From contig MU058198.1 of NCBI GenBank assembly GCA_013265495.1, forward strand, positions 7,455,779-7,519,778: 64,000 nt of DNA, given 5' to 3'. Both the position numbers and the translations under genes were made by a program. Positions within the stretch are counted from its first letter, which is position 1; each line of letters opens with the position of its first letter. This stretch comes from Vicugna vicugna. Lineage: Eukaryota. Of the stretch, positions 10,201 to 63,004 are shown in pieces. The notes beneath the pieces are model-generated. The model saw only the letters and a list, made by a program, of their open reading frames with translations. It did not search any database and was not told the DNA's origin.

Positions 10201-13200
10201 AGGCCCTATTCCTTTCTCTTTCCCAGCCCTGCTGAGTGGCCTCCAACCCTGCTCACCAAAACCTTCCTCCTATGTCTCCCCTAGGAAGGCCCAGGAAAGT
10301 CAGAAGGAGATGAAGCTGTTGCTGGACATGTATAAGTCAGCGCCCAAGGAGCAGCGGGATAAGGTGCAGCTCATGGCAGCTGAACGCAAGGCCAAGGCTG
10401 AGGTGAGGGCAGGTAGGGCCTGTGGGACATGCAGAGAGGCTGCCTCAGGGGGTTCTAACTAGAGTATAGAGCCCTAGGTCAACAGGAAGCAGTGTTGAGG
10501 GCTCCCTCCTTTGGGTGATTATAGGTCGATGAGTTAAGGAGCCGCATCCGGGAATTGGAGGAGAGGGATCGGAGGGAGAGCAAGAAGATTGCAGATGAGG
10601 ATGCCCTGCGGCGCATTCGGCAGGCAGAGGAGCAGATAGAACACCTGCAGCGCAAGTTGGGTGCCACTAAGCAGGTGTGACCCTCTTTTGGTCCCCTTTC
10701 TTCTGAATGTTGGGATTCCCTAAACCTCTTGTTCTAGCAGATGGCCTCTGTCCACTCTGGTTCTGTGCTTAGCTGTGTTTTCCTGTGGTTTCCCCACGGT
10801 CATCCTGTCCATCTGCCACATTCTATCTTGTCCCTGCGCACTTGCTGCAGGAGGAGGAGGCTCTGCTGTCAGAGATGGATGTGACAGGCCAGGCTTTTGA
10901 GGACATGCAGGAGCAGAATGGGCGGCTCCTACAGCAGTTGCGGGAGAAGGATGATGCCAACTTTAAGCTGATGTCAGAGCGGATCAAGGCCAACCAGATT
11001 CATAAGCTATTGCGGGAGGAAAAGGATGAGCTGGGCGAGCAGGTTCTTGGCCTCAAGTCCCAGGTATGACTGTCCTGGGCTTCTAGGGTGCAGCCAGAGA
11101 GGTTGGGGCTCCCCAGCACTGAGTCCCCACTCCTGTCCTCAGGTGGATGCCCAGCTGCTAACTGTGCAGAAGCTGGAGGAAAAAGAGCGGGCCTTGCAGG
11201 GCAGCCTCGGGGGTGTGGAGAAGGAGCTGACGCTGCGCAGCCAGGCCCTGGAGCTCAACAAGAGGAAGGTGAGGCCAGACTTGAGGGGACAGCAAACTGA
11301 GATGCTGGCTCACAGCCTCACTTTCTGACTCTGCTTAGAGAACTTGAAGGAGGTGACCTGGGCTTAATCCCAAATCTGCTTCCTCTCAGCTCACATCTCA
11401 GACACTTAACTCTGTTCCGGACCCTATGTGGAGGACTTAACTGTGCTTGGTCACATTTCAGTCTCAATAACCTCACAGTAGTTTTTGTTATTGTTCACCT
11501 TTCACAGGTGAGGAAACTGAGTCTCAGAGAGGTAGCTGATTTGTTGAAGAAAGAGTAGAACTCGATTTGGGCCTGGGCTTCCTTGGCTCCACAACCCACA
11601 TCCTGACCACTACATTGATTACCTGTAAAATGGGGATGGTGGTCCCTGCCATGTAGTTGCATTAAGCCTAAGAAACGTTTAGCTCATGGTAGTTGTTCTT
11701 TTGAGGTGGGAGCAGAGTCAGTAATGACCTGTGTTGCCATCTTTATGATGTCAGTCTTCTAGCTCAGGGTAAAGTCTTAAGATTAATACCGATTTTCATC
11801 TTCTTGCCCCTGCTGAACTTTTTTCTTCTTCTCCATTTAATTCATTCATTTAAGCAGCATTAGTCATGCCCTCGTTATATACCAGGACCTCCTTGAGTGT
11901 TAGGGAGACCATGGGAGCAAGATAGTCCTGCTGGAAGTGGGAACTCCCAGTTTTAAGGGGCAGATAGCAAGCCAGTAATCCTGTAGATAAAAAGACGTTA
12001 TTATAGATCATAGCAAGTCTTAGGAAGGAGACTGAGGTGTGTGAAAGAAAAATAGGAGAGCCTCTCACAAGAGGTGGTGACATTTGAGCAGAGTCCTGGG
12101 GAAGTTGCAGGAAAAAAGTATGTGTCTTGGGGGAGTTGATGGGAGCAGAGAGAAGAGCCCTGAGCTCTTCAGGGGAACATTATGCAGGTGAGGAATGAGA
12201 GAGAATAGGAGGTGGTGAGGAATGAGACAGAATAGGAGGAGGTGAGGGTTGAGAGGTCAGGAGGCAGGACCAGTTCCAGTGAAGATATTGGAGTTGATTC
12301 CGAGAGCAGGAATCACTGGACATTTGACACAAGTGTCTTTGGACCGTGGCTCCACATGCCTGACTCCCCAGGCTCAGGCAAATGGTGGCCCTCCCTATTC
12401 CACCCACCTAGGCTGTGGAAGCGGCCCAGCTGGCCGAGGACCTGAAGGTGCAGCTGGAGCATGTGCAGACTCGGCTTCGAGAGATCCAGCCTTGCCTGGC
12501 AGAGAGCCGGGCTGCTCGTGAGAAAGAGAGCTTCAACCTCAAGAGGGCTCAGGTGGGTGAATGTCTAGAGGTGGAGGAGGCAGGCGGTTCAGATCGAGGA
12601 CCCTTTCACTCAGCCTAGCCCCTCTGCTGCCCTAGGAGGACATCTCACGGCTGCGGCGCAAGCTGGAGAAGCAGAGGAAGGTGGAGGTTTATGCAGATGC
12701 TGATGAAATTCTCCAGGAGGAGATCAAGGAGTACAAGGTGGGGCTGTGGGGCTGGGTTGTGCTCCATTGACCTGGGAATCTTAGAGAGGAATTTGGTGAG
12801 AGCTGCAGTGGGTAGGCTGGGGACCTTGGAAGTAAGGTAGGATAGCAAAAAGTGGGCAGAACCCATTGTAGAGAATCAAGACAACTGATGAAATAGGCTA
12901 TGCATATTGTGTGCCAGGCAAAGTGCCTGCCTAGGTGTGGGAGCGCTGGGAGCTAGACCTGGTCTCAGATCTCTTGAAACTGACAGTCTGTTGGAGAAGG
13001 AGCCAAGTAATTCTCTCATCTGAGTGATAAGCAGTGTGATGACAGAGGCCAGGGGGTTTGTGGGAACTCAGCGGAGGCCCTTAACAGCCCTGGGGGTCAG
13101 CAGGCTTCCTGGAAGGAATATCATCTAAAGGAAAACTGAAGAATGAGTCAGGGTTAGCTGTGAGGAATAGGGATGAGAGAGTTCCAGCAAAGGGAAAGGC

Positions 13201-14864
13201 AGGGGTGGTGGCCTCTAGTTGAGAGAAGTGTGCTGGAAGACAGAACTGGACAGTTAGAGTTGAAGGTCAGAATGTGGATTTTGTGGGCAGCAACAAGCCT
13301 GGAGGGGGTTAGGCAGTGTCAGATTCTGAAGAGTAAGGTAAGCCCTTTTGAGATACTTGACTTATCCTTAGGCAATGTGGAGACATCAAAGGGTTTTAAA
13401 CCAAATAGTGACATCTCAAGGATGTTGAGAATAAGGTGCCTGCAGGACTTTTTGAGAGGCCCTCTGGGAAGGCACTCAAAGCAGAAGGACTGATCTGGAG
13501 AAGGGTTTGGGGAATTGTCTGCATAGGCAGAGGTGGAAGCCACATGTAGTCACCCAGGAAGGGTCTGTGGTACGAGATGGAACAGAGGTCACTCCCCCTG
13601 AGGAACCTCAAAGCTTAAATGATGGGCAGAGGAAGAGAAGCCTGTGGTTCAGGGGGAAGGAGAGCGATCTATAGGGAGTTGATTGGGGAAGACTTTCAAG
13701 AAGGCAGGGCTGAGCTGAGTCTGAGCTGCCCAGAAGGCAAATGAAGCAAGTGATTAAAGATGCCTCTTGTATTTGGCAGTCTTGGTGGGAATGGATGTTG
13801 GGTGGAGGTGGACGTCAGATCACCTGGACTCTGGCCTACTGGAGTGAGGAGAGAGTGGAGGGTGTGTCAGAAAATAGACAACCTTTTGTAGCAGTTTGGC
13901 CTTGAAGAGACACAGGCAGCTGAAGGCATCCATGGGGAGAAGGGAAGGGTTTCTGAGAAGGGACAGAGTTTGGAGCCTGTCAAATGCTGATGGGTTCTGA
14001 GAGCTAGGGAAGAGGCAATGCTTGGAGAGAGTTGCTGAAGTGGTGGTCTGGGCTGGGATTTCAAACAGGGCAGAGGATGAATGTTGGGGAATGCTGAGTT
14101 GTGGGAATTTCCTGTCTGGAGTTGGAGGCAACTGGTGGCAGGTGGGAAGTTTTAGAATAGAGGAGATTTGTAAACCCTCAACAGAGAAAAATGAATCCAG
14201 GGACCCAAAGCTGGATCTCTGGGCAGTACCAGGGAGGGATCCAGTTGAGTGTTGAGAACAGCAGGGTTCTAGTGGCACTGCCATGCTGAGCTGTGACTTA
14301 GCAGGTGCGGGTGGGGAGAAGGTAGGCTGTTGGCTTAAGCCGGGATTGGGCTTTTGCCAGAGAAGGCCAGAGCAGCAAGAGATGGAACCACAGGGCAGAG
14401 GAGCTCAGGCTGGAGCCTGTGGGTCATTGACCTTAAGAGGGGACATCTGACCCCTGGCCATCACTGCCTGGGTTCAAGTCCAGACTGTGCTACTTCCTAG
14501 TTTCAAGACCTCAGCTTCTGAGCCTCAGTTTCCTCTGGAGAGTGTTCATCCTCACGTCCCAGGGTCATGGTGAGAGTTAGATGCATTCTGCTGTGTGGTG
14601 GGCTTATTCTGGACTGCCTCTTGCTGTCATCTTGGGATCTGGGCACTGTCAGGATTGTTCCCGAGCTGATGCCTTTGCCCGGCCCAGGCGCGGTTGACCT
14701 GCCCCTGCTGTAACACCCGCAAGAAGGATGCAGTCCTTACCAAGTGCTTCCACGTTTTCTGCTTCGAGTGTGTGCGGGGCCGCTATGAGGCCCGCCAGAG
14801 GAAGTGCCCCAAGTGCAACGCAGCCTTTGGTGCCCACGACTTCCACCGTGTCTACATCAGCTGA
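4240..14864 (+). CDS. RNF40: E3 ubiquitin-protein ligase BRE1B (H2B monoubiquitination), 1001 aa
   Basis: Coding exons 4240-4371, 4790-4957, 5092-5233, 5881-6087, 6639-6760, 6888-7034, 7132-7206, 7986-8105, 8199-8378, 8574-8709, 9561-9682, 9770-10197, 10285-10402, 10525-10674, 10851-11063, 11143-11268, 12412-12552, 12636-12737, 14688-14864. All GT-AG and phase-consistent; sum 3006 nt = 1001 aa + stop. Starts [14 protein letters not shown], ends in RING domain [41 protein letters not shown]...VYIS. Confidence 0.97.
12187..12247. repeat. Short 27-bp tandem duplication in an RNF40 intron
   Basis: GGTGAGGAATGAGA(G/C)AGAATAGGAGG(T/A) occurs twice, plus a partial third copy. Confidence 0.7.
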
Positions 14865-15922
14865 ACCTGTAACTCAGGGGACTTTGGAACACCCATGGAC
14901 CCTGGGGGCTGTGCCTCCAGTCCCTCCCCACCCCACACCCAGTGGCCCCCACTCTCCATTCCGGACCTTGTGGGCCTATCCCCTCCCCACGTAGTTGGTT
15001 CAGGGGCCCCAGTGCATGCTAGTGGGAGTGGGATCAGCCAAGCTCAGTTCCACCTTTTCCCCAAGGTCAGAGCTCCAGCCTAGGGAGCACTCACCCTGCA
15101 GGAAAGGTCTGCTGTGAGGGGCCCAGAGAGAGCACTCAGCTGAACTTCCTGGAAGCTGGCCCCAACTCTTCAACTGTCTCCACAGGCCCATCCCAGCCCT
15201 AAAGGAAATTCCCCGGGCTGTGACTTCTCACACAAGTGAAGGCTCACTATCTGCTTACCCACAAGTGAGGACCAGGGATGGGCTAGGTCCCCAGCTCACT
15301 GCCCTAAGACTGGGCCCTGGGGCCCAGGGAAACTTCCTTTACGTAGTGCTCCCCAAACCTGGGCAGAGCTTCCCTCCTGTGGAGTTCCTTGGGGGTTTTG
15401 GTCTGGTCTTGTGTGCTAAGAGCACCCTCTTGGTGAGGGCACCATCCTCTTCCTCTGGGAAGCTCTGAGGTTGCTGCAGTCACTTTGCCCTCATCTTGGG
15501 AGTGCTGAACCAAGATCATCGGTTTCTATTCTAATCAGACCCCTCTCAATCTCTACTTTGCTCCCAGGCCCACTTACACCCACCTCAATGCTTCCCAAGG
15601 TTCTGCTGGGTCCCTAACCCTGACCGTTTCATCCTGGTGGCCTTATTAACTGCAGTGGGGGCAAAACTTCCCAGGAGGGAAAGGGAAAGACTGGCTGCTG
15701 GGCCAACTTCCGATCATTCCAGGTAGAAGAGCTTCACCTAACACCCTGTCACTGAGCCTGTACCCACGATGCTTCCTGTGCTGCCTGCCCAAGCAAACTC
15801 CATGGGCTGTAAAGGCAGTACACAGGGACCTGGAAGGTGGAGCTGCTGAACAGGTGCAAGGGTCCACTCGGACCCACAGCCCCTGCTCTAGAAATGTCTT
15901 GTATAGGCTGTTAATTGTTATG

Positions 15923-15928
15923 AATAAA
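15923..15928 (+). terminator. Probable RNF40 polyadenylation signal
   Basis: AATAAA about 1.06 kb after the RNF40 stop codon. Confidence 0.75.
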
Positions 15929-16289
15929 CGCCCAACTCAGCCTATAGTCTTAGTAGCCAGGCTTCCTACCCTAAATGTGGTCCTGGATTTTGGCTGTTAA
16001 AACTTGTTCCCCGAGCTCCCCTGGCTGACATGTGAACCTGGAGGGCCTGCACAAATGAGATACCCTGGTCCTGCCCACCTCCAACGACTAGTTATGCTTA
16101 GACCTAACTGCCATCCGGTTTCTCGGACTGGGCCCTTGGGAGGGGCGTGTCTACAAGGAGAAAGTGTCGTGGTCTGTCCGCTGCAGCCCGCCGACCTCTC
16201 CTGTTCCCACGGGGAGGGGCTGACACTCCCTGCATCGCCACAACTGCGGGCCGCGGTCCTCACGGGCTCACCACGCTCCCCCCCCCCAC

Positions 16290-16360
16290 CGCAGTCATTG
16301 GCTACAGGGATGCTGGGAGCCTCGAGGCGCATCCTGGGAAATGTAGTCCCTTATTGGCAC
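16290..16360. promoter_or_regulatory. ZNF143/THAP11-type (SBS/ACTACA) promoter element with CCAAT boxes
   Basis: GCATCCTGGGAAATGTAGT at 16329-16347 (reverse complement ACTACATTTCCCAGGATGC); ATTGG at 16297 and 16353; in CpG-rich sequence. Confidence 0.7.
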
Positions 16361-16533
16361 CGGCTGACGAGATTCTCCGAGGTAAGACCCAAGTTCCCAG
16401 TTGTGCTGGTCAGAGGCAGGCTTGGACCCAGTCTATCCCCAACGGCTTTACCCGCCCCTTCCCCCCTCGGACGGACAGACAGGACATCTCAGCGGGTGAC
16501 TTCCTTCATTGCCATTTGTGCTGGCTGTTAGCC

Positions 16534-17016
16534 ATGTCCTCGAGAACCGTGTGTCGAATGGCGCTGTGGGTTCATCGCTCTGTCGGGTACGCGGGCGGAG
16601 CCTTCACCGAGGCTGCGCTGGGGCTCGCGCTCAGGCCGGTGCTGACCGGGCTTGGTGCCGAAACAGGAGCTGGAATTGGAGCCATGGCCACGGGAGCCGC
16701 TGCCGGCTTGTCAGCAGTCATGCCCTTGCGCACTCCCGCAGCATTATCGGCGGTAGCACCTTCGCGGGGGCTCGCGGCGTTGTCCGCCTTAGGGCCCCAC
16801 CTGGCGCCCAAAGTTTCGGAGGGTCCGCAGCAGCTGGACCAGGTCGGACTGGAGGCGGAGACTCGGGCTACGGTGACTTCCGGCGCAGGGCTGGCGGCAG
16901 TGGGCACGCTTGCTGAAGCTCTGGCCGCGGCGGGGGATGGCATCCGGCCGAGGAAGTGTCCGCGGCCCCGGGCAGTGGTAGTCAGGTTGGGTAAAACGCA
17001 GCGTATTGCATCATAG
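16534..17016 (+). CDS. Candidate uncharacterised 160-aa Ala/Gly/Leu-rich ORF, antisense to a decayed zinc-finger exon
   Basis: gccATG at 16534 directly after acceptor-like GCTGTTAG (AG 16530-16531); donor CGAG|GTAAG at 16382; TAG ending 17016; AATAAA 17208-17213. Coding status unproven. Confidence 0.3.
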   Translation: MSSRTVCRMALWVHRSVGYAGGAFTEAALGLALRPVLTGLGAETGAGIGAMATGAAAGLSAVMPLRTPAALSAVAPSRGLAALSALGPHLAPKVSEGPQQLDQVGLEAETRATVTSGAGLAAVGTLAEALAAAGDGIRPRKCPRPRAVVVRLGKTQRIAS

Positions 17017-17172
17017 AGATGCGGTCCGTCTCTGAGAGGAGTGCTGCGCCTGGAAGCCGGTCGGGGTCAGCCAATCCTCTGTGAGCACTGCCCTGTTTCC
17101 CAGGAGTCACCTTCACGTGGGCTCCTTAGTAATGCAAGTGACTGCATCACCTTCCCAAACATCTCTCCATAT
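16560..17172 (-). pseudogene. Decayed C2H2 zinc-finger exon (relic 1)
   Basis: Minus translation TLRF-TQPDY-H-CP-G-PRT-L; RPDAIPRRGQSF-SKRAH-C-RQ-P; SL-RLQSD-L-VQ-L-LRT-L. Keeps F-x5-L-x2-H-x3-H spacing, with several ligand codons one base from Cys/His; frameshifts and stops present. Confidence 0.6.
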
Positions 17173-19265
17173 CTAGAGGAGCTAAAAACTCGTGAGTTCC
17201 CACGCTTAATAAAGTAAGCATCGAACCATTTTCTCAAGCTGGAGCCCAAGAAAGTGCGATAAAGATCCCAGAATTTGAGTAGGAACATCAAGCACTGATG
17301 CTGCAGGAAGAGAGTAAACTCTCCATAAATCTTGGTTTGCAATTAGGCCGCCCAGTGCTGGGAAAATCTACTTTAGGGGCTGGTCAGGTCCCTCCATACA
17401 GGATGTTTGACCCCTTACAAACCCTTGTAGCCCTCCCTCAGTGGCTGTAATACCCTGGGCCCTTGGGATGGGCAGGCCAGAGGTCCTCCTGGACCAATGC
17501 TGACCTTGGTTGGCCTCTGAAGGTGAGCAGATACTGGCCTCAATGACAAAGGTACCTTTTCAGCCAGAATGAAGGCTGCTGTCTAACTGGTCACAGGGTT
17601 CAGTGGGGCATTTGAGGTTGACCACTCTCTTTAAAACTTCCCTTGGGTCCTGTAGTGCTACACTCCACTGGTTTTCCTCATATTATCTTCTGCTGGCCCT
17701 TTTTCTGCATCCACAAGCTTGATCGTCTCCTTTCTACTTCAGCTCTCTCCTTGGGTGTGTTTACCCAGGACCATGGCTACAGCTAGGATAATAAGGCCCA
17801 ACTCCTCCAGCACCACTTCTCTTTCTTGCGCTCCAGACCTGGTAAATAACCACCATTCATGGCTGGAGGTTAGGATCATGCCACTCTGCTTAAAAATCCC
17901 CCGATGGTGCCCTTTCCCCCAAGTTACTCAAACAAGATGCTCCACACTCTAGCCTGTGCTCTCTACCTTATCTCAATTCCTATCCCTCATTGCTCTAAGC
18001 CTACACCTAATTTATGCACCCTCTATCCCCCACTCCACCCTGGCCCCTACATACACTGTTTCCTGCTCCTGCAGCCTTCACCGTCAGATGACTTCCTCAG
18101 TTAGTTTCCCGACCCACTGCAGGCATCACATCTGGGTCCACAGCCCCTTCTGGTAAGTATGTACCAATGTGCTCCAGTGCTTATTCTTCCCCTGTAGCCC
18201 CCTCACTTTACTGATGACTCCTGTGCTGACGTCCCTCAGTGTCCCCAGGGCTGGAAACACAGGGAAGAGAGAACAGCCTTCCATACTCACCTCTATGTGA
18301 AAGGCAAGTCCCTCTTCTCTTCCCCACTTCTCCACCCCTTGCTTTCCAGATGGGGAAGGGGAAGGAGAGACAGTTGAGCCTGCCCTGGGAGCCTGGATCA
18401 GACAGGTAAAGGGAAGGTGGGGAGACAGCTTCCTGGCTGGGGCAGAAGGCCCCCAGCAGACTGAGGCAGAGGCAGGCAACAGGTTAGAGCAGGTGTTGAT
18501 CTCAAGCAGCCACTTAGAGGCCACAGCCAGATCTCGGCCCAAGAGATAGTGCTGAGGCAAGCCTGCATTGAGGATTCAGTGGAGCAACCCCGTCTGGCCC
18601 AGACAGTGAGGAGCCCAGGCCAGGCCCAGGCAGGCCCAGCGATGGGGGAGGACAGGCTTGGTCGGGTACAGAGCTTGCTCCTGGCCATTCTGGTTTCCCT
18701 CACCACCTTGCAGTAGATCTTAGGCAAATGGCTGCCCTTCTCTTAGCCTCACTCCCTCACACACTGGGGGCTCATGGGCTACATCCTGAGTGAGAACACA
18801 AGCCAGGTGTCCACCCACCTCTCCTCAGGGCCTAGGAGGCTCTGTTCTAAAGGAATGGTTAGGCCAGGTCCAGGGCCCAGGTGAACCAGGGGAAGTGGCC
18901 GCTAGCTTCTGGAGCTAGATCTTAGGCACTTTCCCTTGTGGCAGTCTGGGGAGGTGCAGGTGTTGAGGCACTAAGCCAGCCAGTGCCAGTCACCAGGCAG
19001 CCACCCAGAAGTAGGCACGTAATGCTGCTTGGCTCTGCCACCTGAGCACGTTTCTCCCTCTATCTCCCATGAGTACAGATTTTAAAATTCCATAAACCCT
19101 CAGGCTCCCACCAGCATCTGGGCACCTGGGGAAAGGGCTCCAAGTGTGGCCTCAGGCTGGGCTGTGCCTTTGAGGTGACACCTGGACGCTGCCCTGGGAG
19201 CGGACAGGCACTCTCAGCTTGCTTAAGGCTTGAAAGACAGAAAACACTTGGGAAATCTTATTCCC

Positions 19266-19271
19266 TTTATT
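19266..19271 (-). terminator. Probable distal polyadenylation signal of ZNF629 (3'UTR about 3.3 kb)
   Basis: TTTATT on plus = AATAAA on minus; a second candidate at 21332-21337. Confidence 0.55.
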
Positions 19272-22200
19272 CTCTTTAACTAATCAACATGACCACCGGT
19301 GACACAACACTGTTATTGACACACAACACTCAAAAGTGGGGCCTCTCTTCACTCCAGGGGGACAAGTCAGGTGAGTGGGGCTTCCCGAATGGGAGCAAAG
19401 AAGTCTGGGGGCTGCTCACCTCAGGGGCGAATGTCATGGGACCCCACCTCTTGTGGTGATGATTTCAAGTTTCCTCACCATTCAGGATTCATGCCCAGTT
19501 CTCTCGAGCTCTCATCTGACCTCCATATCCATAGCAGTTTCAAGTTTCACCCTAAGCTCAGATCAGTTTCTATTCTCCCCTCTGCTTTCACCAGTGACAC
19601 TGTGACCCTGTCTGTTGGGCTTCTCCACTGGGCACTTCTGAAGAGTTAGGCCTGCATGGACTTGGACAAGGGGGTTTGGCTACACTCTGCTTTCAAGACT
19701 CAGTTCCTGTGGGAAAGCGCCATGACCCCTGGGCCTTGGCCTGAGCTGGTCAAAGGGACTCTGGACACTGCCAGGTCTCCCACCTGCTCCCTGCTTAGTT
19801 CCTCCCAAGATGTAGCTCACTCTAGGAGGGAAGCAACTGGCTAAAGGAGTTCGGGGAGGTGGGCAACAGAGAACACGTCACACCCCCAGAGGTCTCCGAC
19901 TCTGCCCCTTTCCTTCCTATGAATCCCCAGACCCCAACTAATTGTGTCCACATTATCCATTCAGTACCGGAGCCAAGGCCCCTTGCCCTCACCCATCCCT
20001 ACAACATGCGGGCATCCTACTACGTATGCTACACTCTAGTCCTCAATAGGCCTATGGTCGGCCTTTGATCACAGTGACCACCTCCCCCCGGACTGGCCCC
20101 CGAGTCCCAAAGGCTGCTCTCTAGGACTCTTCTGGAAACAGATTCCTCAGACCTGTTTCCAAGGGGGTCTGTTTCTAGCTGTACAAGGGCTTTGTCTCTA
20201 CAACTGAAGTTTCTGCTATCGTGGAGGGGAAAAACCTGCTTAGAGAATGATCTCTTCTTCTGTCTCGGAAGGACCCCCTCCTTGGTTGACGCTGTCAGTA
20301 GAGGCAGGCAGGCTCCTTCTCCCCTCTCAGCGGTGCTTTCCAACCTGGCACTTGGGTGGGGTGGGGCTTTATGCTGATGTTAACAAGGGTCTCCCCACAG
20401 TCATCCAAGGCCTGACCTTTCCTTCTCCCCAGCAGGCCTAGGTTTTCCCTCCTACAGTGTTCTAGATTTTGATCTTTGAATTTGAGGGTCATCCCTCTGG
20501 GGACAGGATAGATGAAGGGCGAAGGACTTTTACCTTTTGAACTTTTAGGTAATGGAATTAGAGGTCTCTTCCACAGGTTTGTAGGAAGCTGGGCACTCGC
20601 TCCAGGGATGCAGCTCCCGAAGGGCCACCTCACCTGGCATCTCAGTTCTCTTACTCCAAGACCAGAGTGTATTCCTGGGGCCAGCGTGGGTTCAGTGGGC
20701 ACTTCCTTTGAACCCAGTACTGGATGGAGTCCTCTCCTTTAAGGGTCTCCAGGGTTAGGTGGGGTTCTTGTTACAGATGTTTCAAGAGTTTTCTCTCTTT
20801 AACCATCTTACAGGACAACAGTCTTCCCCCTGCCGCACACACTCCCAGTCACGTGAGCAGGCTTGGCTGGGTTAATGAAAGTACGTCACTGTGTGTGGTG
20901 TGAAGACAGGGGCCAGTCCTGGCCAGGGAGTGTTTCTCATCTTTCTGTTTCCCTCTAAAGGTTTCTGGCTAAGGAGAGGAGCCAAGTGGGTGGAATATGT
21001 CCCTTTCCAAGACCACAGTCGAACTGGGTTGTTACAGCCTCAGAGGGCTCAGGGTACCAGGGTGAGAAAGGTGGTCAGGCCTCCATATACTCTTCAGAGA
21101 CTCATGGTCCAGTCTGTTGGGTGTTTGGACACCCATCACTGCGTATAGGCTGGCTCATCCTGCCAGCAGCCTTGCTGACAGCTCAGATGAAGTGAGGTTG
21201 TTGGCTAATCAGAGCTCATTATTCTGTTGACTTGCTGTCCGTTGTAGCCAGAGAGAATCCACACGTGGCTCTCTTGACTTAGAAGTCTAGGGAGTATTTA
21301 ACCACACACAGGCCTTGAGTCTCTGAAGGACTTTATTCTTTGGAGGTCGACTAGCAGCGGTTCTCCCTCTCCGACTTGAGGACAGAATTTGAGGAAATGG
21401 GCTGCCACTGCAGGAAGACTGGTGGCAGTTAGATTTCAGGAGAAACCTCCTGACAGTGAGACCTGAGAATGTGCAGGAGGGACCCTCCATTCCTGGAGGC
21501 CTCTCAGAGTAGACCTCCCCAGCTGGGCTGGGGAGAAGGGAAGTCCTGCCTGGTGGGGGGTCGGGGAGAACCCTGGTGGCCTGAGCTGGGATCTGCTTGT
21601 ACTTGCAGTTTAACAAGCTACAGGGAGGACTGGGCAGCCTGGAGTTTGCTGGCTTCCATCTGAACAGCTTCTCCACCTTGGTTTGCTTTCCTCAAAGCAC
21701 TCTAACAAATCCCCCCACTCTTCCCTCCGAATTTCTGTGGTGGTTTCCTACTTTTCTTACACTTAAGGCTTGTATGCATCCCAAACTTTAGCCTTTAAAA
21801 AGGTTTAGCATTTTTTTCTTTCCCCATTTTTGGGTTCTTTCTGATCCGGAATTCCACGGGCCTCTTCCTCTAACACACATAATCGTCTAAGTCTGCCCTC
21901 CGACCACAAGAAGCCCCCAGTGCCAAGAGCTGGACTTTCTCTTAGTTCCTGGGTCATTTCTCTTCTGTGGGTCTGAGGGCTCCTCATCACTTATTTTATT
22001 CTCTTTGTTTTCTTCCTTTTCCCATTCCACCTAATTCCCACACTCCTCCCCAGCTGAGCATTTTCCTCAGTGTAACTGTCCAGGGTTCTGGGACACAGGC
22101 TCCCTCCCACACTCCAGGGGGAGAGAATGCTGTGGAGCAAGTTCGTGGGAGGTTCTTCTATACCTTCTAAGGGTCACTCCTCCCTAGTCAATGCTGTTGT

Positions 22201-22602
22201 CCTATTCCCTGCACTTCCCTGACCCTTTAGTTTCACAAGGATTTCAATACAGTTTTATAGGGTTGTCTAGAGACATATTGGGACCTCTTCCTACAATTAA
22301 TAGGGCTTTTATCCACTATGGTTTATAGGGTTTTTCTGCTACAGACTTAAAGGGCTTTTTTTTTTCCTACATATTTATAGGGTTTCTAACCCAACAGTTT
22401 TTCTCTACTACCTTATAAGAAGTGGTTCCCACCAACAATTTTAAAGGGTTTCTCATCACGGATGTAAAAGCGCTATTTTTACCCACAGTTCTTTATCCTC
22501 TTCTCTACAATCTGATAGGGTTTTCCTCCTTTCCCCACAGAATTTTTGGGGCGGTCCAGTGTTCCTCTCGGGAGAGAGAGGCCCCTGGTCTCCAGACCCA
22601 TT

Positions 22603-25364
<2,762 letters not shown>

Positions 25365-27399
25365 CCCAGAGCTCAGGATTGCCAGATGTTCAGGGACCTT
25401 GGGGGAGGAGAGAGACAGCACACAATAAGAGCTGACATCCTGCTTTCCTTTATTCCCCCAGCCCCACTCCTCCATCTGCGTGCCCCCCAGCCCTCATTCC
25501 TCCTTGCATGAACTTCAGTCTCCTACCTCCCCATTTTTCTGGGCATTCATTCTCACTGCGGCCCCCCTCCCCCTGGAGGCCTGATTCCTGCTCCAGATCT
25601 TAAGATCACAACTAAGCAAGTAGGTGAATTTAAGAGTGTAATTAAAAGCTCATCACTCATAACCCTTTGAACCCAGACTGGGGGCTGGAGAGGTGTCTGA
25701 CACCCACAAGGGGAAAGAGGCTCTCACCCCACCCCTCTGATGCCCAGAGGCTGGGAAGCCTGTTATTTTGCTAATCAGAGGAAGCTCATTAAGACTCTAA
25801 TTTTCCTCGTTAATGGGGCTGCTAATTGGGACCAATAAACTTTCCTTGTGAACAGAGAACTGAGACTGCCTGGAACACTTAAGGAGTTCAAAAAAAAAAA
25901 AGTAACCGCTCCGATTTCCCCGAGGGGACAGAGCCCTCCAAAAGACTGGGGCACTTTCCCGTTACCCAAGCACAGAAAGAAGGTCAGAAGTTGGGCGGAG
26001 GCAGTTTAAAGCTGTCAGGGGCTTCTGCAGAAACTACCTTGAGAGGAAAATGGAAAGGAAAAGAGAGAAGGGCTAAGTGTATGGAGACCACCTGGCAGCT
26101 GACGCAGTGCCTGCTGTGCTGTCCTCAGCAGCTCATCCAGTCCTCCCCACAATCCTGTGAGGTAGACCCAGGAATCAGGACGTCCATTGTACAGATTAGG
26201 GAATCAATGCCCAGGGAGATTTCTCCAAGGTCAAAGGCTAGGAGGTGGCAGAGTTAAGACCAGAAACACAAGGTTCTATGTCTGGCTTGTCCTAGCCTCT
26301 GAGAGAGAGAAAGAGAGCAATGACCTTGAGAGTCATGTGAAACCCATAAACGTGGGCAGCTGGGGAAAGCTCAGAGCCTGTTGGCCATGGGAATGGGAGG
26401 GAGAAATGCTTGGGACTAAGAGGTTGCCCTGGCTGTAAAAGGAGGCACTGGATCCTGACATTCTGCTTCTGTGAACTCGAAACAGAGAACTCCCCACTGG
26501 AGCCTTCCATTATCACTCCCATCCTGGTACCCCTTCTTCTAGCCCAGTTTTTGTTGCTGCCATATCCCATCCCTAACACATAATAAGTGCAAAGTAAATT
26601 TTGAATGAAAGATGAATGAATGAGATGCCGCTTGCTCTTAGAAAACCTGTTTGGTCCAATGCCTTTAAAGAGGGTGGCAGCAAAGGAGCAGCAGTTTAAA
26701 GTAAAACATAGCCAGCTGTCACTCCAAAAAGGGTGATATGATTCCAGGATGAGGGAACAGGGCCACAGGGGCTAAGTGCTAAGAGGAGAACTTCCCACAA
26801 CGTTTAGACCCTTAAGAGAGTCCCTGGGGAGGGTGTGGGCTTTGGGTGGCCAGGTGGGATGGACACTGTGTGTATGGGGGCAGTGGTGCAAGGAGACGCA
26901 TGAGGAGGCAGCTAGGTGGAAATCAAAGTGAAGCGGGAGCTAGCTGAACCCGGCCAAATAGCAAGGAGGAGAGATGGGAGTTAGATTTTAGGAAGTAAAT
27001 GAATTTCTTCATTTGCCGCAGCTCCCTAAGCTATGAGAATTCCCCACCCCCATCTGCAAGTGTCTTTGGGGAGGTGGAAGCCCGGACCTCCTCCCAGCTG
27101 GGGGGGTGCTTGACTCTTTAGAAGAGCCTTGCTGGGTTTGCTGAGGACAGGTAAGGGCTTAGGTACCTTTGATCATCTGGAGAAATTCAAACTCAGCAGT
27201 CGAGAGTAGAAGGGAAGGGGTTAATGAAGAAGCCAACACGCAATATGAAAGTGGGGAGACCCAGGGAAGCAAGAAGTGCTTGGGCCTGCACCGGCCTCGG
27301 ACCTCATGCCAGCCCCACTGCGGAGGGAGGGAGGGAAGAAGAGGAGGAGGCTGCCTCACAGAGAGGTGTGGAGATCGGCCCAGGGTGACCCTGACATGG

Positions 27400-28050
27400 A
27401 GGCGACTGCGGGAATGCAGCCACCCTAGCCCTGGCCCCCCGACACCCGCACCAGGCCAGACCCTGGACTTCTGCTCCAGCCAGTCCCCACGACCCTCCTT
27501 CCGGCTCCCAACCCAGTGCCCGGCATCCTCCCCTCCCCCACCCCCCCGGGGCCCCCAGGATTCCCGGCTCTCCCGCGGCGCCCCAGCCCCCCGGCCGAAT
27601 TCCCTCTTCCCAGAATGCTCACGCCCTCCCCTCCCCCACAGCCAGACCCTCGCGCTCTTCCCAGAATCCTCGGCCCTCGCGGCCCCTGCCCGGCCCCCAC
27701 CCCTACCCCGGGCGGCCCGCGGGCGGGGGAGGGGGCTCAGGCCCGGCCCGGCCCCCGCCTCCCGCGCCCCATTGTTCCCCGGCGGCCGTCCCGGGCGCCC
27801 CAGGCCACCCCCCGGGAACCCAGGCGTCCCCAACTCACGGCTCTGGGGTCTGGGAAAGGCCGGAAGGCAGAATCCAGCCCCAAGGGACTTAACCCCTTGA
27901 ATGCCCGGCCTCGGGGGGCGGGCGAGATGCCGAGGACTCTGGGGTCCTTCTCAAGGGGTGATCCCAGGCTGAGGACCCGGGGACCAGTTCAGGGTGACTG
28001 GGACGGAGCAGGAAGTGACCCCAGCTTCCCGGGCCCCTCTAGCCTGGAGT
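27400..28050 (-). promoter_or_regulatory. CpG island / promoter and non-coding first exon of ZNF629
   Basis: Very GC/CpG-rich; GC boxes; candidate minus-strand donor CC|GTGAGT (exon end 27839); exon 2 acceptor before 25397; ETS motif CAGGAAGTG near 28009. Confidence 0.7.
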
Positions 28051-30266: not shown

Positions 30267-33200
30267 CTGTCTGTCTAATTGTCTTTCTGTCTAGGATCAC
30301 AGGGTAAACCTCCCAGCCCTGCCATTCTCTCCTCGTCTTGCTCCAGGAGCTGCAGGGAGGAACTGGGAAGGGCAGGGCACTCCTGCCCAACCAAGCCATT
30401 CTCCAGAAAGTTTCTTGTGCCCAGCTCCTGGAGAGGCAACAGGTACCGTGAGTGTGGGCGACAGTGTTTTGTCTTGTGGCCTATAGTCAGCGGCACAGTG
30501 GCCAGGAAGGAGACCCTCCTGGCAGGGGAATTCCTAGAAAAATGAGGCTTGATTCCCTGCCTTTCATGGCCAACCCATTATCATGTTCTTCTTGGTCACA
30601 GCTCACCAGCCTTCCACACGGTCCCTTAATCCAGGCCCTTGTGTCCCAAGGCCCAGGTTGCTGTGAGAGCAGTTAAGTCCTGGAGGTAGACTCTGGTCCA
30701 AACCTTGCTGCATCCTCACTGCCATTGTGGCCTTGGGCAACTCACTTTGCCTCTTGGAGATTTGGCTTCCTCTTTAGAACAAGAATGAGCCTTGGCTCCT
30801 GAGGGACGGGAGGGCTAAATGAGATGATGCAAGAATTTAGAGCTGACCGTCTCTAGCCACCTCTGCCTCAGTTTTCCTCATCAGCGCGCAGCCCTCAGCC
30901 TGGTGGGCAGGAGAGCCAGGAGTCTGGAGACCCTGTCCTGAGTAATCTGGGAGGACCTGGGGCCACGACCAGACCCTCCAATCCTCCGTTCTATGGATAC
31001 TCTCAGGGTAGGATGCAGGGACTGAGAAGGTGAGGCTGGAGGAGGCCACTCACCTCACCGCCCCAGGCACCTTCTCACCAGGACAGCTGTCTAATCACAG
31101 TTCAGGAGGCTGCCACCAGGAAAGGATGGGGCCTTCTTCCCCAGAGATGTGCATGCCCACAATGTGTATTGAGAACTGTTATTCAGGAATATAGTCTTCA
31201 AATGTGGGACAAGAGGTGAATCCAGGGAGGGATCCACTTGGGAGGTCCCTTCTGCCTCTTTAGAGTCTGAGATTCCAGACTCAAGAACTGCTCCAGAACC
31301 GGCAGTGGCTCCCCAAGGCTTCTCAGGTCAAGTCCTTCCCTCCCAGTGCCTCCTGACCACCAGTGTTCCCTAAGGCTCAGAACCAAGTCCTTCCATTCCA
31401 TTCTCTTCCTCAAAATCTCCCACCCGATGTGGTCAGTTCAAATACTTAGCTGTTATTTTGCCCCCACCCTTGAGGCCTTGCTTTTTCTCTCCATTTGCCG
31501 AACAGACCCGTCTACTCTGCAGTCATCCCAGATTCACCAGCTTCATTTCCTTCCACGCTACCTAGTCATCCTGCACCTCAAGGCCGGGGGTGCCCTCCTC
31601 TGCACCCCTTAGCCAGTAGTTCCTCAGGCCTAGGGGCCCCTGTTGAGTCTGCCCACATCTTCCATCCCCCTGCCCCGGGCCACTGTAGCCCCCTCGTTCT
31701 CATTCCTGAATTATCGCAGTGACTTTCCAACAGCTTGTCCTGCCTCCAGCCCCCTTAGCTTCTCCCCACCCATTGGGTGCCCTGTGGGTCTTCCTGAAAG
31801 TCCCGCCGTGTTCGCCCTCAGAACAACTCCACTGTCCTCGTTCTCAGTAGAGAGGGTTTTTTTTTTTTAATTTTTGGAAATTACAGAACTTTTGTTTTTA
31901 TAAAGTTAACATACCTATGATTAAGTTTTTGAAGACCCACATGTATCACTGGGTAAATAAAATTAATGTATAGAAATATAAATGAAAAGAAACAAAAATC
32001 TATGTATACTGTTTTGGAACCAAATATTTGTGTGAACAGATGATCTGAAATAACTATAGTCACTCACCTTTCAGGGCCTTTCAGTAATCTCATCTGCAAA
32101 ATGACAGGGCAGCTCTGATGTTCTCTAGATGTAACTCTGACTCTACAAATAACTGGTGTATGTAAGTCTTGACTATTTGAAGGAGTTTACATAAGTGCCT
32201 GGAGACAAGAGCTGCTCCAGGGAGGACTCAGGATCGGGAGTAAGAGGGAGACTTAACTTTGTAAACTTTTGTTCTGTTTGATGATTTCTAATTTAGAAAA
32301 AAATAAAACCCAACACTTTCAATGTTAAATATTTAGAGTATATGGTTAGGAATGGAGATTTTGGGATTAAAACATGTTGATTTCCTTTTCAGGTTTGTCC
32401 TAACCCAAGACACATTAAGTCAGATTCAACTGATTTCCTACCCACATGTGACACATGGACTAACCTTCTGGAAAGGTCCCCATCAGCCCTGGGAACAAAT
32501 GCTCTACTGTGGCCTAAGCATGGGAAAGGAGGCTGAAGACAGACAGAGGAGAGTATTATATTGTCACACATATTAGAATACTTCTTTAAAAAATCAGCAA
32601 GCTCTCAAAACACTTGAAGCCTGATTGCACCACTGGCATACCCCAAGGAACCTAGATTTCTGCCTGTACAGCAGTGATGTTCAGAGGGCCTGGCCCCATC
32701 TGAAAGCAGCCTTTCTGCCTCCCTGCACAGCGCTCTCCTGGGTAATCCCCACCCTTACGCAGTGCCAAGTGCTCCACCCCTGCCCTCCCCCACCAAGAGT
32801 AAGGACCTTCCTGCTTCTGGGCCTTTCACCAAGCCCAGGTCCCCTCCATCACCTCTAGAACACTTCCCTCCTCCTGTCCACATAGGACTGTCTGCAAGGT
32901 CCTGGTCAAATGCTAGCCAATTTAAGTCTAGGTTCTTATATTAACTCACACTGAGTAACCATTTTATAACAGCTACTTTCATTCACGTTAAGGCATTTGT
33001 TCCTACTAAAACTTTTGAGAGGCCAGTATTAATCCTCTTTACACTCATGAGGGGATGGGACTTCAAACAAGTCAGCCACAGAGCAACTGTGAGGTCTTGG
33101 GATCTGGGGGTCTTGGATTTTCCAGCTCCAAGTCAGGGGCTTCCCTCCTTCAAAATCCAGCTAAATCTTATCTCTTCCTTCCCTGACTACAATGTCACCT

Positions 33201-33419
33201 ATGAAACTGCCCTCACCTTTGTCTGGGTCTGACCTCAGGGATTCCTAAGTTTTACTCACATCTTTGCCACATCTGGGTACCCACTGTACTGTTTATTTAA
33301 CACATTTCTTTTCAGTTTGACTCATTTTTCTTAACTGAAAGAAACATATCTGAGAAGGAAACTCAATGTCAGTATGGTAAACAGAAAACTGCTTGTTACA
33401 AATTATGAATCTAAAAATA

Positions 33420-34700
33420 AATACAATGTAAAATTAACTCAAAGTGGTTCAAAGTCCTAAATTTAACACCTAAAACCATAAAACTTTTAGAAGAAAACGT
33501 AAGTGTAAATCTTCATGACCTTGGATTTGGCAATGGTTGCTTAGATATGATACCAAAAATATGAGCAATGAAAGAAAAAACAGGTAAATTGGATTTAATC
33601 AGAAGTTAAAAATTTTGTACATCAAAGGAAGCTATCAAGAAGGTTGAAAACAACCCACAGAATGGGTGGAAACATTAGCAATCCATCTATCCGATAAGGG
33701 ACTTGTATCCAGAGTATAGGAAATACTATTACAATTCAACAATAAAGACAAATAACCCAATTTGAAAATGGTCAAAGAACTTGAATGGACATTTCTCCAA
33801 AGAAGATATCCAAATGGCCAAAAAACACATGAAAAGATGTTCAGTATTATGAGTTATTAGGGAAATGCAAATCAAAACCACAATGCGATGCCACTTCATT
33901 TCCACTAGGATGGTTATAATAATAATAATTTTTAAAAACCTGAAAATAACCAGTGTTGGTAAGGACGTGAAGAAATTGGAATCCTTGTAACATTGCTGGT
34001 AGAAACATAAAATGGTGTCGCCGCTGTGGAAAACAAGTTAGCTGTTCCTCAAAAAGTTAAACATAGAATTAACATCTGACCCAGAAATTCCAGGTATATG
34101 CCCAAAAGAAATGAAAACATACGTCCACAAAAAAAACTTGTACACAAATGCTCAAAGCAGCACTATTCGTAATAACCAAAAAGTGGTAACCACCTCAACG
34201 CCCATCAACTAATAAATGGATAAAATGCAATCTGTATGCATACAATGGACTATTATTCAGCTATAAAAGGAATGAAACATGCTAACTTGCTAAAACATGC
34301 TAAATAACTTGCTAAAACATGGATGAACCTTGAAAATATTACGCTAAGTGAAAGAAATCAGATATAAAAGGCTGCAGTATTTTATAATTCTGTTTATAGG
34401 AAGGAACCAGAATAGGCAAATACATAAGGACAGAAAGCACTAATTCAAAAAGATACAGGCACTCCTTTGCTCATTGTGGCAGTATTTACAAAGGCTCAGC
34501 AACAGATGAATGGATAAGGATGAGGTATACATATACAATGGAATACTACGCAAACACAAGAAGATGAAATATTGCCATTTGTGACAACATGGATGGACCT
34601 CGAGAGTTTATGCTAATCGAAGTAAATCAGACAGAGAAAAAACAAATATTGTATGATTTCACTTATATGTGGAATATAAAAAACAAACAAAAGACAAAAT
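33420..34700 (+). mobile_element. LINE-1 fragments (ORF2 3' end and 3'UTR)
   Basis: Typical L1 text such as GACATTTCTCCAAAGAAGATATCCAAATGGCC, GGAAATGCAAATCAAAACCACAATG, CATGGATGAACCTTGAAAA; degenerate. Confidence 0.85.
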
Positions 34701-60729: not shown

Positions 60730-60950
60730 GGGCTGTGGAGTCAGGCAGGCAGACCTGGGTCTGAATGCTGATTCTGCCACATACTGGCTGTGTGACCTTG
60801 GGCTGGTCCCTTAACCTCTCTGAGACAGTTTTTCCTTCTGTAAAATGCTGATAATGAGAACACCAATGGCACAGAGATGCTGTGAAGACTGAATGAATCA
60901 TATAAATCACAAAGCCTGGCACAGAGTAAGCCCTCCACAAGTGGGAGACG
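60730..60950 (+). mobile_element. MIR SINE (one of many MIR/L2 remnants in the window)
   Basis: MIR core CTGTGTGACCTTGGGC...TTAACCTCTCTGAG...CTGTAAAATG and 3' part GCCTGGCACAGAGTAAG. Confidence 0.8.
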
Positions 60951-61715
60951 TGATGATTTCCTAGCACGACAGGCCCAGCAGTGGAGTGGGCAAGCACGAG
61001 CTTGCTTGCAGCCCTTGGAACCCCTCAGAGGGTCATTCGCCCCGGGCCTTCTCCAGCTGGGTCTGCTGGGGCGGCTCAGGGCTGTGCCACACGCTTCGGG
61101 TGCCCCCTCACCAGCCCGGGCCGCCTTCCCGGTTCCCACGCAGGCCCGCGGCGAGGCGGGCGCCAGGGTGGAAACGCTTCCCGCCCCCGTGGGCTCCCGG
61201 GGGAACTGGCGAGGCTGGCACCCTCAGGAAGCTCTTGCTGCAGGTCCTCCGGCGATCGACGGAACCCACCCGCGGGCCTAGCATCCGTGGGCCTGCGGGG
61301 AGGCGTTAGGTGGCGGGTGGGGTCGGGGTGGTGGGCGTGTGGCGCAGGGTCTCCGCGCAGGCGTGGCCCCCCCGGGCCTCCGCGCGAGGCTGCTGGAGGC
61401 CCGGCGCCGACTGCGCACTCCGAGGCCTCTGGCTGCGACGCGTCCTCAGGCGTCGGATGTGGTCCGATTGTGCCCGAAGCCCTCCCCATTCTTGGGGGTG
61501 CCGTTGAGCCCGCTCTGCGCGAGAGTCGGTGGCGAGCTAGCTGGGTGCTGGGACCTTAGGTTCGGGGCAGGCTGGGGCCGCTCGCCCGCGATGTTCCCGC
61601 GGCGGCTCTGGAGCTGGGAAGCCCTTTGCGCCCTCAGGGGCACGGGTGGGTGGCTGGCTGGATCTTGGGGCGGCCAAGGGAAGCCTAAGGGGCTCGCCTT
61701 CCCTGGGGAGCCGGC

Positions 61716-61916
61716 TCACCTCCCCTTTCCCTGGGGGATCGTCCGGGGAGCCCTCGGGGTCTTGCTTCCTCCGCCGGGAGCTCTGGGGTCCGGCGGCGCC
61801 GCCGAACTGGGCCGGGCGTGGGTGCGGAGGCCCCTCCTGGGAAGGAGCCGCCTGAGGGGCTCTGTTTTCAGGCCTTTCTCGTGGAGGGCTCTCCTTGTCA
61901 TCCTCACTCCCGAATC
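61716..61916 (-). CDS. BCL7C: Distal alternative last coding exon of BCL7C (BAF complex subunit), 66 aa + stop; upstream exons lie outside the window
   Basis: Acceptor TTCCTCCCCGCAG|GAT at 61916; peptide DSGVRMTRRALHEKGLKTEPLRRLLPRRGLRTHARPSS...RAPRTIPQGKGR* matches the recalled C-terminus of the long human BCL7C isoform; synteny RNF40-ZNF629-BCL7C; AATAAA on minus at 60275-60270. Confidence 0.78.
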   Translation of the reverse strand, partial: DSGVRMTRRALHEKGLKTEPLRRLLPRRGLRTHARPSSAAPPDPRAPGGGSKTPRAPRTIPQGKGR

Positions 61917-63004
61917 CTGCGGGGAGGAAAGAAGGATCTGTAGCGTATTTTCTTCTCCTCAGGCACATTAAGACTAGGAGGACCCTGCCTGGGGAGTCCT
62001 AAATGGGACAACTTGGTACAAAGTCTTTACCAACGACCAAGTGCGGTATTTCCGACAGCAGGCAGAGCTTGAGGCTGGGTCCCTTGGGAGCTCAGTGTCT
62101 GAAATTTGACAGAGCCGGGCAGCTCTACAGTTACTTGCAGTGTGATTTGAGGCAACTTACATAACTTCTTACAGTTTCAGTTCGTTCAGCTGTAAGGTGG
62201 GGGGAATAGTAGGGGAGCCACCGACCATCAAGAAACAGGGGGGCGGGGGGGGCACAGCAGCCTTATGTTTAGTTGGAAAGACCAGTATAAACCTGTACCT
62301 TACAGAAACCTTTTTCCAATTCTGTCACTGCCAAGGGTGGTCCAGGCCCCCTCTACTAACTCCATGTATAACTCTAGTGCCGAGTGTTGGTATCATATTA
62401 TTTACCATTAAAATAACCAGGAGTCCTAGGAGGGTAGCTGATTCCATTTCTTGAAGCAAGAAAAATCAGGATGGGTCTACAAGCATCCTGCTGAGGTATT
62501 GAGCACCCCCCCCCGAAATACAACAATTGATATGCTTAAGGGAAATGTCTGGGAAAGGCTGTGAGACCATAAGCTACCCAAAAGTGGAGTTAATAATGTA
62601 AAGAAAAAGTAGTTTTACTAAGAATAGATACATATGATATTGATGATTTTTATAGAGTGTTAATATATGGATATTTTGTTTCTTCTATTCTTCATCTATT
62701 TATAAGGCATAACTATGAACTTGTTTCTGTCTGTGCAAGGAGGAAGGATTAGACCTAAGGGAACTGAGTCCAGTGACCCTGGAAAAGCAACGTTACCATT
62801 ACTGGACAGCACTGATGAATACATATAGTAACCAGGTAAGAAACTGCAACACTTGTTCTGAAAGGACAATGTACCCATCTGTCCTGATGAGAACTAATTT
62901 AAACATACTTACTACCTCACCTCCTAAGAGATGACACATGGAGGAGCTTTAACAAACACTGATCAACAGTCCCCATCAAAAAGATCCCTAGATTTTATAA
63001 GGGA

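Follow-up and report, generated by a model that had tools for sequence, protein, structure and literature searches.

A plus-strand transcript and two opposed reading frames in the CpG island between RNF40 and ZNF629, with a probable zinc-finger origin

The region between the end of RNF40 (about 15945) and ZNF629 (minus strand, about 28000 to about 19245) was analysed in a 64,000-nucleotide (nt) stretch of mammalian DNA from Vicugna vicugna (contig MU058198.1 of assembly GCA_013265495.1), which is called the window here and whose positions are used throughout; the two gene names are those that we take the translations to indicate. Between the two genes lies a CpG island, roughly 1 kb long and single-copy in the genome. 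A preliminary description had placed there a two-exon de novo gene on the plus strand, encoding a protein of 160 residues in the antisense frame of a dead zinc-finger exon. We found that a spliced plus-strand RNA covers the island in a related species, and that a second open reading frame (ORF) lies on the minus strand. We propose, as an explanation with about an even chance of being right, a pseudogene-derived long non-coding RNA (lncRNA) in which the plus-strand ORF is a shadow frame and a candidate small protein of the minus strand is the source of constraint.

The CpG island and its plus-strand transcript

The island spans 16100 to 17150, with a CpG observed/expected ratio of 0.55-0.89 and a GC content of 0.60-0.69 in 200-nt windows from 16100 to 17100; the ratio is about 0.5-0.9 across 16100-17300. 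Promoter-type motifs were observed on the plus strand at 16297..16357, where two ATTGG boxes (16297 and 16353) flank a ZNF143-type site (16329-16349), as previously described. We take these putative sites to be of the NF-Y and ZNF143 types, and the letters of the latter recur in the translations of P0074, P0060 and P0076. A further motif, GTGACTTCCGG, presumably ETS-type, was seen at 16875..16885 within the best-conserved block. An Rfam scan gave three sub-threshold matches, none of them in the island, and a bacterial promoter scan, irrelevant to a mammalian locus, was empty.

RNA contigs were examined from four runs (X9, X11, X15 and X21) among the 24 listed; the contigs are unstranded, may drop rare forms and cannot show transcript starts. 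In X11, which is RNA from a related organism, one contig at a depth of 89 spans 16278-17213 and continues through a GT..AG joint, 17213>18350, whose orientation is plus, so that the plus-strand transcript that had been proposed does exist, in one run of a related species. X15, whose run type is not on record, gave a single unspliced contig at 16208-17196. X9 gave no contigs at the locus, and X21 only two partial reads elsewhere, at 15600-15780 in the RNF40 3' untranslated region (UTR), which match in part and then diverge. Five listed runs hold reproductive-system RNA labels, only X9 of them was among those examined, and nothing is claimed here about tissue.

The first exon of this transcript (16278..17213, plus strand) is drawn from the X11 contig, with the X15 contig in agreement over 16208-17196, and its start is approximate. 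The letters of the intron formerly proposed at 16382..16531 of this strand are present, with a donor AG/GTAAG at 16381/16382 and a 150-nt candidate ending in TTAG at 16531, but the junction 16381>16532 is absent from both of the two runs that cover it, where the intron is retained, with the limit that contigs can lose rare forms. The AATAAA at 17208 is likewise present, but 17230 was not supported as the sole 3' end; the splice donor that overlaps the signal (AATAAA/GTAAGC, 17208..17219, plus strand) is used in the joint 17213>18350 and splices onward. Judging by translations of homologues, either or both of these overlapping signals may be altered in some other lineages (P0060, P0068 and P0018).

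Exon 2 (18350..18405, plus strand) starts where the joint places it and would end before a donor at 18406. A third exon may start at 32393..32403 on the same strand, where eight loose contig letters match behind a pyrimidine-rich acceptor; of the 19 sites that fit with one mismatch, this alone is preceded by AG as required, a coincidence with a chance of about 0.003. The RNA probably runs on to 32393, antisense across ZNF629, all of which the intron would then span. Downstream of this exon, 33300-34200 is A-rich and resembles what we take to be a LINE-1 fragment. Three low-depth X11 contigs (3-6) were also observed at 17804-19064, between exon 2 and the 3' end of ZNF629, and could be pre-mRNA, read-through or DNA.

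The retained leader has two ATGs upstream of the plus-ORF start at 16534. It contains a 73-codon upstream ORF (16310-16531, plus strand), which is altered by a 1-nt deletion at 16461 in a related organism, and an ATG-TAG start-stop lies within the ZNF143-type site. In the spliced RNA the stop of the plus ORF is 197 nt upstream of the junction, and a stop placed well upstream of a junction is the layout of a target of nonsense-mediated decay.

Of the neighbouring genes, RNF40 is represented by its last exon (14689..15945, plus strand, 3' end approximate), with a RING-domain translation and a proximal AATAAA at 15923, and its last introns (12001-14000) show a strong excess of G over C (skew 0.30-0.37). 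ZNF629, with 19 fingers, occupies 19245..28000 on the minus strand, with a minus-strand AATAAA at 19266 and both ends approximate.

Two opposed reading frames and the zinc-finger register

The plus ORF (16534..17016) extends over 160 codons from gccATG to TAG, as had been described, and includes an internal strong-context ATG at 16684. ATG-initiated ORFs of at least 160 codons were found in 30 of 1000 dinucleotide shuffles on the plus strand and in 59 of 1000 when both strands were counted, so this length is mildly unusual. Searches yielded 14 clusters among 4452 candidates, which together with 25 representatives made 32 distinct ones; frameshift-aware alignments comprised 31 clusters, the nearest relative (P0001), in which the ORF is intact at 97% identity, being left out. 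Named homologues in this frame include DAA15332.1 of cattle, CAI9173032.1 of reindeer and KAK2097896.1 of tamarin.

These comparisons did not bear out a conserved protein of 160 residues. The Met at 16534 is in frame in none of the 12 clusters spanning the position, a frame switch occurs within the ORF in 23 of 31 clusters, and close relatives from a single cluster terminate in three different frames. Seven clusters share a frame switch at 16564 relative to the window, so the change appears, judging from proteins, to belong to the window's lineage, and only this change connects the upstream start to the conserved core. Since the N-terminus is not shared by homologues, the first residues cannot be a conserved targeting peptide, and the targeting role that had been speculated for them was not supported. 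At 16684 a Met is found in 16 of the 31 clusters and another residue in 7, while 8 are unaligned. Between the window and the related organism A, third positions account for 6 of 11 substitutions in the plus ORF (P 0.07-0.20), and in a comparison of frame identities P0072 was more diverged from its relatives overall. No fold was predicted by AlphaFold2 for either the plus or the minus ORF (pLDDT 41 and 57, respectively; pTM 0.12), no usable match to the plus ORF was found in the ESM Atlas, and Pfam gave no matches in three frames of the locus. The plus ORF thus has transcription on its own strand (one run, related species) and a lineage-specific enabling mutation; purifying selection over its whole length, with a shared start and stop, was not found. 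On the sequence comparisons it is very probably not a conserved protein. We judge it to be a lineage-specific shadow frame that would be misfiled as a de novo protein-coding gene; because the register and period-3 tests given below indicate an old exon, it would at most be a case of new-frame origin.

The tests supported the view that the plus ORF follows the antisense register of a C2H2 exon rich in GC, a frame in which stops are naturally few. A decayed C2H2-like remnant (RPDAIPRRGQSFSKRAH ... LQSDLVQLLRT) was seen with moderate support on the minus strand at 16760..16950, with no Cys or His ligands and with stops downstream. As had been noted, the sense frames are broken while the antisense frame stays open, the stops in the zinc-finger register of the minus strand being at 16791, 16746 and 16713, and the LAEAL at 16909 is also found opposite the ZNF629 fingers (23719, 24307 and 24727). 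The word array goes too far, because the locus has no C2H2 motif in any frame and no Pfam match, and by eye no more than two or three fingers, all heavily decayed, can be made out.

Profile comparisons pointed to the same register. A profile of the plus-frame homologues matched only the antisense one among the six frames of ZNF629, with a score of 22.1 (60 column shuffles: mean 9.6, maximum 15.1), and against six GC-rich arrays forming an independent set it scored 19.1, which none of 100 block shuffles equalled; a mixed set of 29 arrays gave 14.6, equalled by 1 of 60 shuffles. The minus-frame profile matched solely the +1 frame of fingers. Both the off-frame profiles and the codon bias fit the register of a finger exon, with modest scores (E 0.004-0.06). 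Under an antisense zinc-finger model, the ORF register of the core codons exceeds both other registers by 54-85 bits, and this model was no better than a plain CpG-island model for the same codons. Period-3 base bias is strong at the locus (p=1e-5, versus 0.02-0.85 in four control island stretches), which points to coding, past or present; each of the three remaining CpG islands of the window has stop-free frames of 150-260 codons. In DNA alignments to 13 finger arrays, the relic exceeded the codon-shuffle mean with every array and fell short of a control island with every array too.

The higher score of the control island weighs against a zinc-finger origin, and so do several other results. 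The control CpG island that outscored the relic against all 13 arrays is the one at 60900-62000, read on the reverse strand. The DNA profile match to ZNF629 reached only E 0.6, and the ZNF629 score was equalled by 2 of 100 block shuffles. A hidden Markov model of finger proteins gave noise in the sense frame (154 of 200 shuffles as high), a search with the sense-frame peptide found no zinc-finger protein, and the majority-adjusted sense register held no finger signal. No parent of the relic was found in its own genome (best non-self E 0.007, not a zinc-finger gene) or among longer proteins, and the protein search found no intact orthologue; as possible kin of the relic, four GC-rich finger loci were tested, not the whole neighbouring zinc-finger cluster. 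On balance, the island exon probably originated from a zinc-finger exon, which the decay shared by homologues suggests was dead before their lineages split. The antisense frames of GC-rich arrays have 0-1.8 stops per 100 codons where the GC content of third codon positions (GC3) is at least 0.69, so an open frame is explained without selection.

Two further observations concern finger sequences elsewhere in the window. ZNF629 itself has a 563-codon open antisense frame (23116-24807, plus strand) and a 213-codon open +1 frame (24210-24851, minus strand), living counterparts of the two frames of the relic that would be crossed by the lncRNA intron. In the control island at 60900-62000, the top finger-profile match, at 61242-61224, is non-significant and may reflect composition or a second relic.

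The minus strand carries an ORF of 123 codons rich in Ala, Pro, Ser and Thr (16572..16943), which lies in the +1 frame of the relic and shares its third codon positions with the plus ORF; this better-conserved ORF had been overlooked in the preliminary description. A search with it gave 22 clusters among 1944 candidates. Predicted proteins in this frame were found in peccary, pig, goat, sheep, donkey, panda, bears, meerkat and two bats (entries include A0A8C3VS52 of peccary, A0A4X1TNN4 of pig, A0A7N5KNM5 of panda and L5KH24 of flying fox). The database models on both frames are uncharacterised predictions, and the pipelines differ in the strand chosen. By counting from the alignment, the Met (16943) is common to 19 of the 22 clusters and the stop (16572) to 18, so that start, stop and frame are shared across orders, in a biased sample. 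In 16 proteins found with the plus frame, those letters of the minus start and stop that could be tested are all kept (16 of 16 for the start, 9 of 9 for the stop); fully kept columns are only 14 of 134.

Constraint of a coding type was, unexpectedly, seen at 16575-16943. Frame switches in plus-found proteins were observed at 1.4 per kb within 16575-16943 versus 11-13 per kb in the flanks, which makes frameshifts about nine times rarer there, and the limits of this frameshift-poor zone coincide with the minus ORF. Inside the interval 21 of 31 plus-found clusters have no frame switch, and unique in-frame and frameshift events number 27 and 12, compared with 22 and 36 outside (p=0.004). Six frameshifted segments showed differences at 74.5 of 240 shared wobble sites (0.31), versus 36.5 of 240 (0.15) in the next class; counted as unique sites, the numbers are 49 of 120 and 32 of 120 (p=0.03). 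The asymmetry persists at non-CpG sites (0.37 vs 0.15), is missing in the flanks (0.22 vs 0.27 and 0.21 vs 0.24) and did not arise in uniform simulations. Among proteins found with the minus query, 5 of 21 carry an inferred stop in the plus frame (three events); the corresponding count for the minus frame is 0 of 20, a difference that is not significant. Because the two ORFs share third positions, selection on one makes the other appear conserved. It is with reserve, at slightly less than an even chance, that we name the minus ORF as the source of the frame constraint on 16575-16943; any conserved protein here is more likely a small one from the minus strand, a candidate whose translation is putative.

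A number of observations argue against this minus-strand candidate. In the closest relative no selection was seen: of the 9 substitutions that separate the window from organism A, 7 alter a minus residue. The context of the minus ATG is weak, no minus-strand AATAAA was found in 15000-17400, and no minus-strand RNA was seen in contigs that are unstranded and whose sole joint is plus. First- versus second-position rates fail to separate the strands, and substitutions are barely more conservative than neutral. Sites with A or T in the window account for the wobble excess (0.61 vs 0.22; 0.17 vs 0.13 at G/C sites), and every wobble comparison includes the window's own branch. A frame switch does occur inside the minus-ORF interval in 10 of 31 clusters. 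All homologues were found as proteins, which biases the sample to open frames, and the minus-frame database models are predictions, possibly copied between each other. Two metagenome scans for DNA of other mammals found none, and the cross-species tests rest on proteins. Pfam gave just sporadic weak matches in one or two of 23 minus-frame proteins, and the best ESM Atlas value for the minus ORF, 0.77, was below use.

Upstream exons of the database minus models (17519-17451, 21987-21949 and about 21495) were not accepted, the splice sites being weak in the two that were inspected. The N-termini of the goat, panda, bear and pig models map upstream on the minus strand, two of the stretches lying in the ZNF629 3' UTR, and hint at spliced ZNF629 read-through or at forced introns.

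Interpretation and competing explanations

In the explanation that we propose, a GC-rich C2H2 exon on the minus strand would have died before these placental lineages split and persisted as a CpG island just beyond the proximal RNF40 poly(A) site. The island, with its ZNF143-, NF-Y- and ETS-type sites, would start the plus-strand RNA through factors of these types; the RNA and its strand were observed, and the start site is inferred. This RNA retains the whole island as exon 1, splices at the donor overlapping AATAAA and probably traverses ZNF629 in antisense. Its likeliest action would be in cis, through transcription over ZNF629 and its promoter, while splicing and poly(A) use may compete at 17208-17219 and the spliced RNA may be subject to decay. 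A lineage-specific frame change would have attached an upstream ATG to the stop-poor antisense register, giving the 160-codon shadow ORF. The constraint on the frame of 16575-16943 would come from a disordered small protein of the minus frame, and since that frame shares wobble positions with the plus ORF, it would help to keep the latter open. On the side of the RNA, it weighs against this account that the joint 17213>18350 depends on one contig from one run of a related species, that X9 and X21 gave nothing at the locus and that read-through from RNF40 is compatible with the RNA data.

A more specific history is conceivable, although doubtful when taken as a whole. The +1 frame of the relic may have become a new disordered protein of 123 residues early in placental evolution, which purifying selection would have maintained across many hoofed mammals, carnivores and bats. 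It would have been lost in some lineages, including the tamarin, and would be overlapped head-on by an lncRNA whose frame shares its wobble positions. If this were true, a single dead exon would have given a promoter, an lncRNA and a protein, possibly with translation of both strands.

Alternatively, neither strand encodes a protein, and the island and lncRNA are real while both ORFs are open as stop-poor off-frames, with slippage in register favouring deletions of 3n, promoter motifs slowing change and the protein search adding its bias. The low stop density of antisense frames in GC-rich arrays (0-1.8 per 100 codons), the non-silent effect in the minus frame of 7 of 9 substitutions to organism A, the failure of both ORFs to fold (pLDDT 41 and 57), the non-coding class of the mouse RefSeq entry and the 10 of 31 clusters frameshifted inside all agree with this. 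It does not account for a wobble asymmetry that is confined to the core, extends to non-CpG sites and is lacking in flanks and uniform simulations, nor for the coincidence of the edges of the frameshift-poor zone with the minus ORF, and we consider it rather unlikely.

The roles of the two frames may also be reversed, with a plus-strand microprotein translated from the internal strong-context ATG at 16684 and the minus ORF as its shadow. Plus-strand RNA was observed, the Met at 16684 is present in 16 of 31 clusters, third positions hold 6 of 11 substitutions to organism A (P 0.07-0.20), and the wobble signal is compatible with the plus frame as well. The C-terminus, however, falls in one or another of the three frames depending on the cluster, 5 of 21 minus-found proteins have an inferred plus-frame stop, several ATGs lie upstream, the stop is 197 nt ahead of the junction, and the wobble rate tracks fourfold degeneracy of the minus frame and not of the plus frame (small numbers). 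A small probability is all that we assign to this reversal.

The chance is slim that the RNA is instead a long RNF40 3' extension running on beyond the proximal poly(A) site. In its favour, both contig starts (16208 and 16278) lie upstream of the promoter motifs, RNF40 contigs were possibly filtered out, and the human RNF40 3' UTR as annotated is presumably long enough for this AATAAA. Against this, the X15 contig stops at 16208 with no piece toward 15945, the CpG island has promoter-type motifs, and the mouse has a separate gene whose differences between strains (3.4-, 2.0- and 2.4-fold) are larger than those of Rnf40 (1.2, 1.3 and 1.4). Very improbable is the original proposal of a two-exon de novo gene (16381>16532) with a functional 160-residue protein and a targeting peptide, in which all signals are present, the ORF is intact in P0001 (97% identity) and its length is reached in just 3% of shuffles, but whose junction is unseen in two of two covering runs, whose start is unique to the lineage and whose poly(A) signal is bypassed by splicing.

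An lncRNA on a decayed exon is ordinary in itself. The analysis supplies a first structure, with its retained 'intron', poly(A)-overlapping donor and ZNF629 antisense span, for a locus known in mouse only by a clone name, and it warns those who call de novo genes that a long, signal-rich frame can shadow an opposite-strand frame that shares its third positions. Should the minus ORF be real, it would represent an old gene that arose from a zinc-finger exon through a change of frame and that would be overlooked wherever the frame is broken.

Mouse counterpart and related systems

An annotated mouse transcript between Rnf40 and Zfp629 had been suggested as a check, and there is one: supplement file 11 of PMC3295810 gives the gene order Rnf40, 1700120K04Rik (NR_027915.1, a non-coding RefSeq entry), Zfp629. 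The offset of 1700120K04Rik from Zfp629, 2953 bp, maps to about 16292 in the window. Its expression is recorded in somatic tissue (PMC3295810) and in B cells (PMC9451539), so it is not confined to testis, and the consulted parts of these two papers give it no function. The RNA of the locus is the positional counterpart of 1700120K04Rik, the likeness consisting in a matching place between Rnf40 and Zfp629 and in the non-coding class. The strand and the exons of 1700120K04Rik were looked for and not found, which counts against this part of the interpretation.

The literature searched, which mostly excluded subscription papers, yielded no description of the two ORFs or the relic; the locus is absent from the consulted supplements of PMC5577775 and was not matched in a partial supplement search of PMC4568590. 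The RNA has the characters of lncRNAs from lost genes, namely that it is spliced, that a counterpart exists in synteny and that its own strand holds no conserved ORF. As in the cases presented in the consulted parts of PMC5577775, it occupies the site of a dead coding gene and has retained regulatory sequence, and the ORF length varies among mammals as for JPX. It differs in that no intact ancestor was found and in that the RNA is antisense to the dead gene, whereas the comparisons given there are plus-strand only.

An ORF in a shifted frame over damaged fingers has parallels in ZNF781, whose annotated ORF covers stop-interrupted fingers (PMC12871928), and in frame-disrupted zinc-finger mRNAs with an ORF in another frame over broken fingers (PMC2194788), as far as the consulted parts of these papers go. 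Cases of the ZNF781 type keep recognizable fingers, whereas the fingers here are almost erased. Unlike those cases, the present locus has two open frames on opposite strands over the same codons, with a start and a stop common to several mammalian orders.

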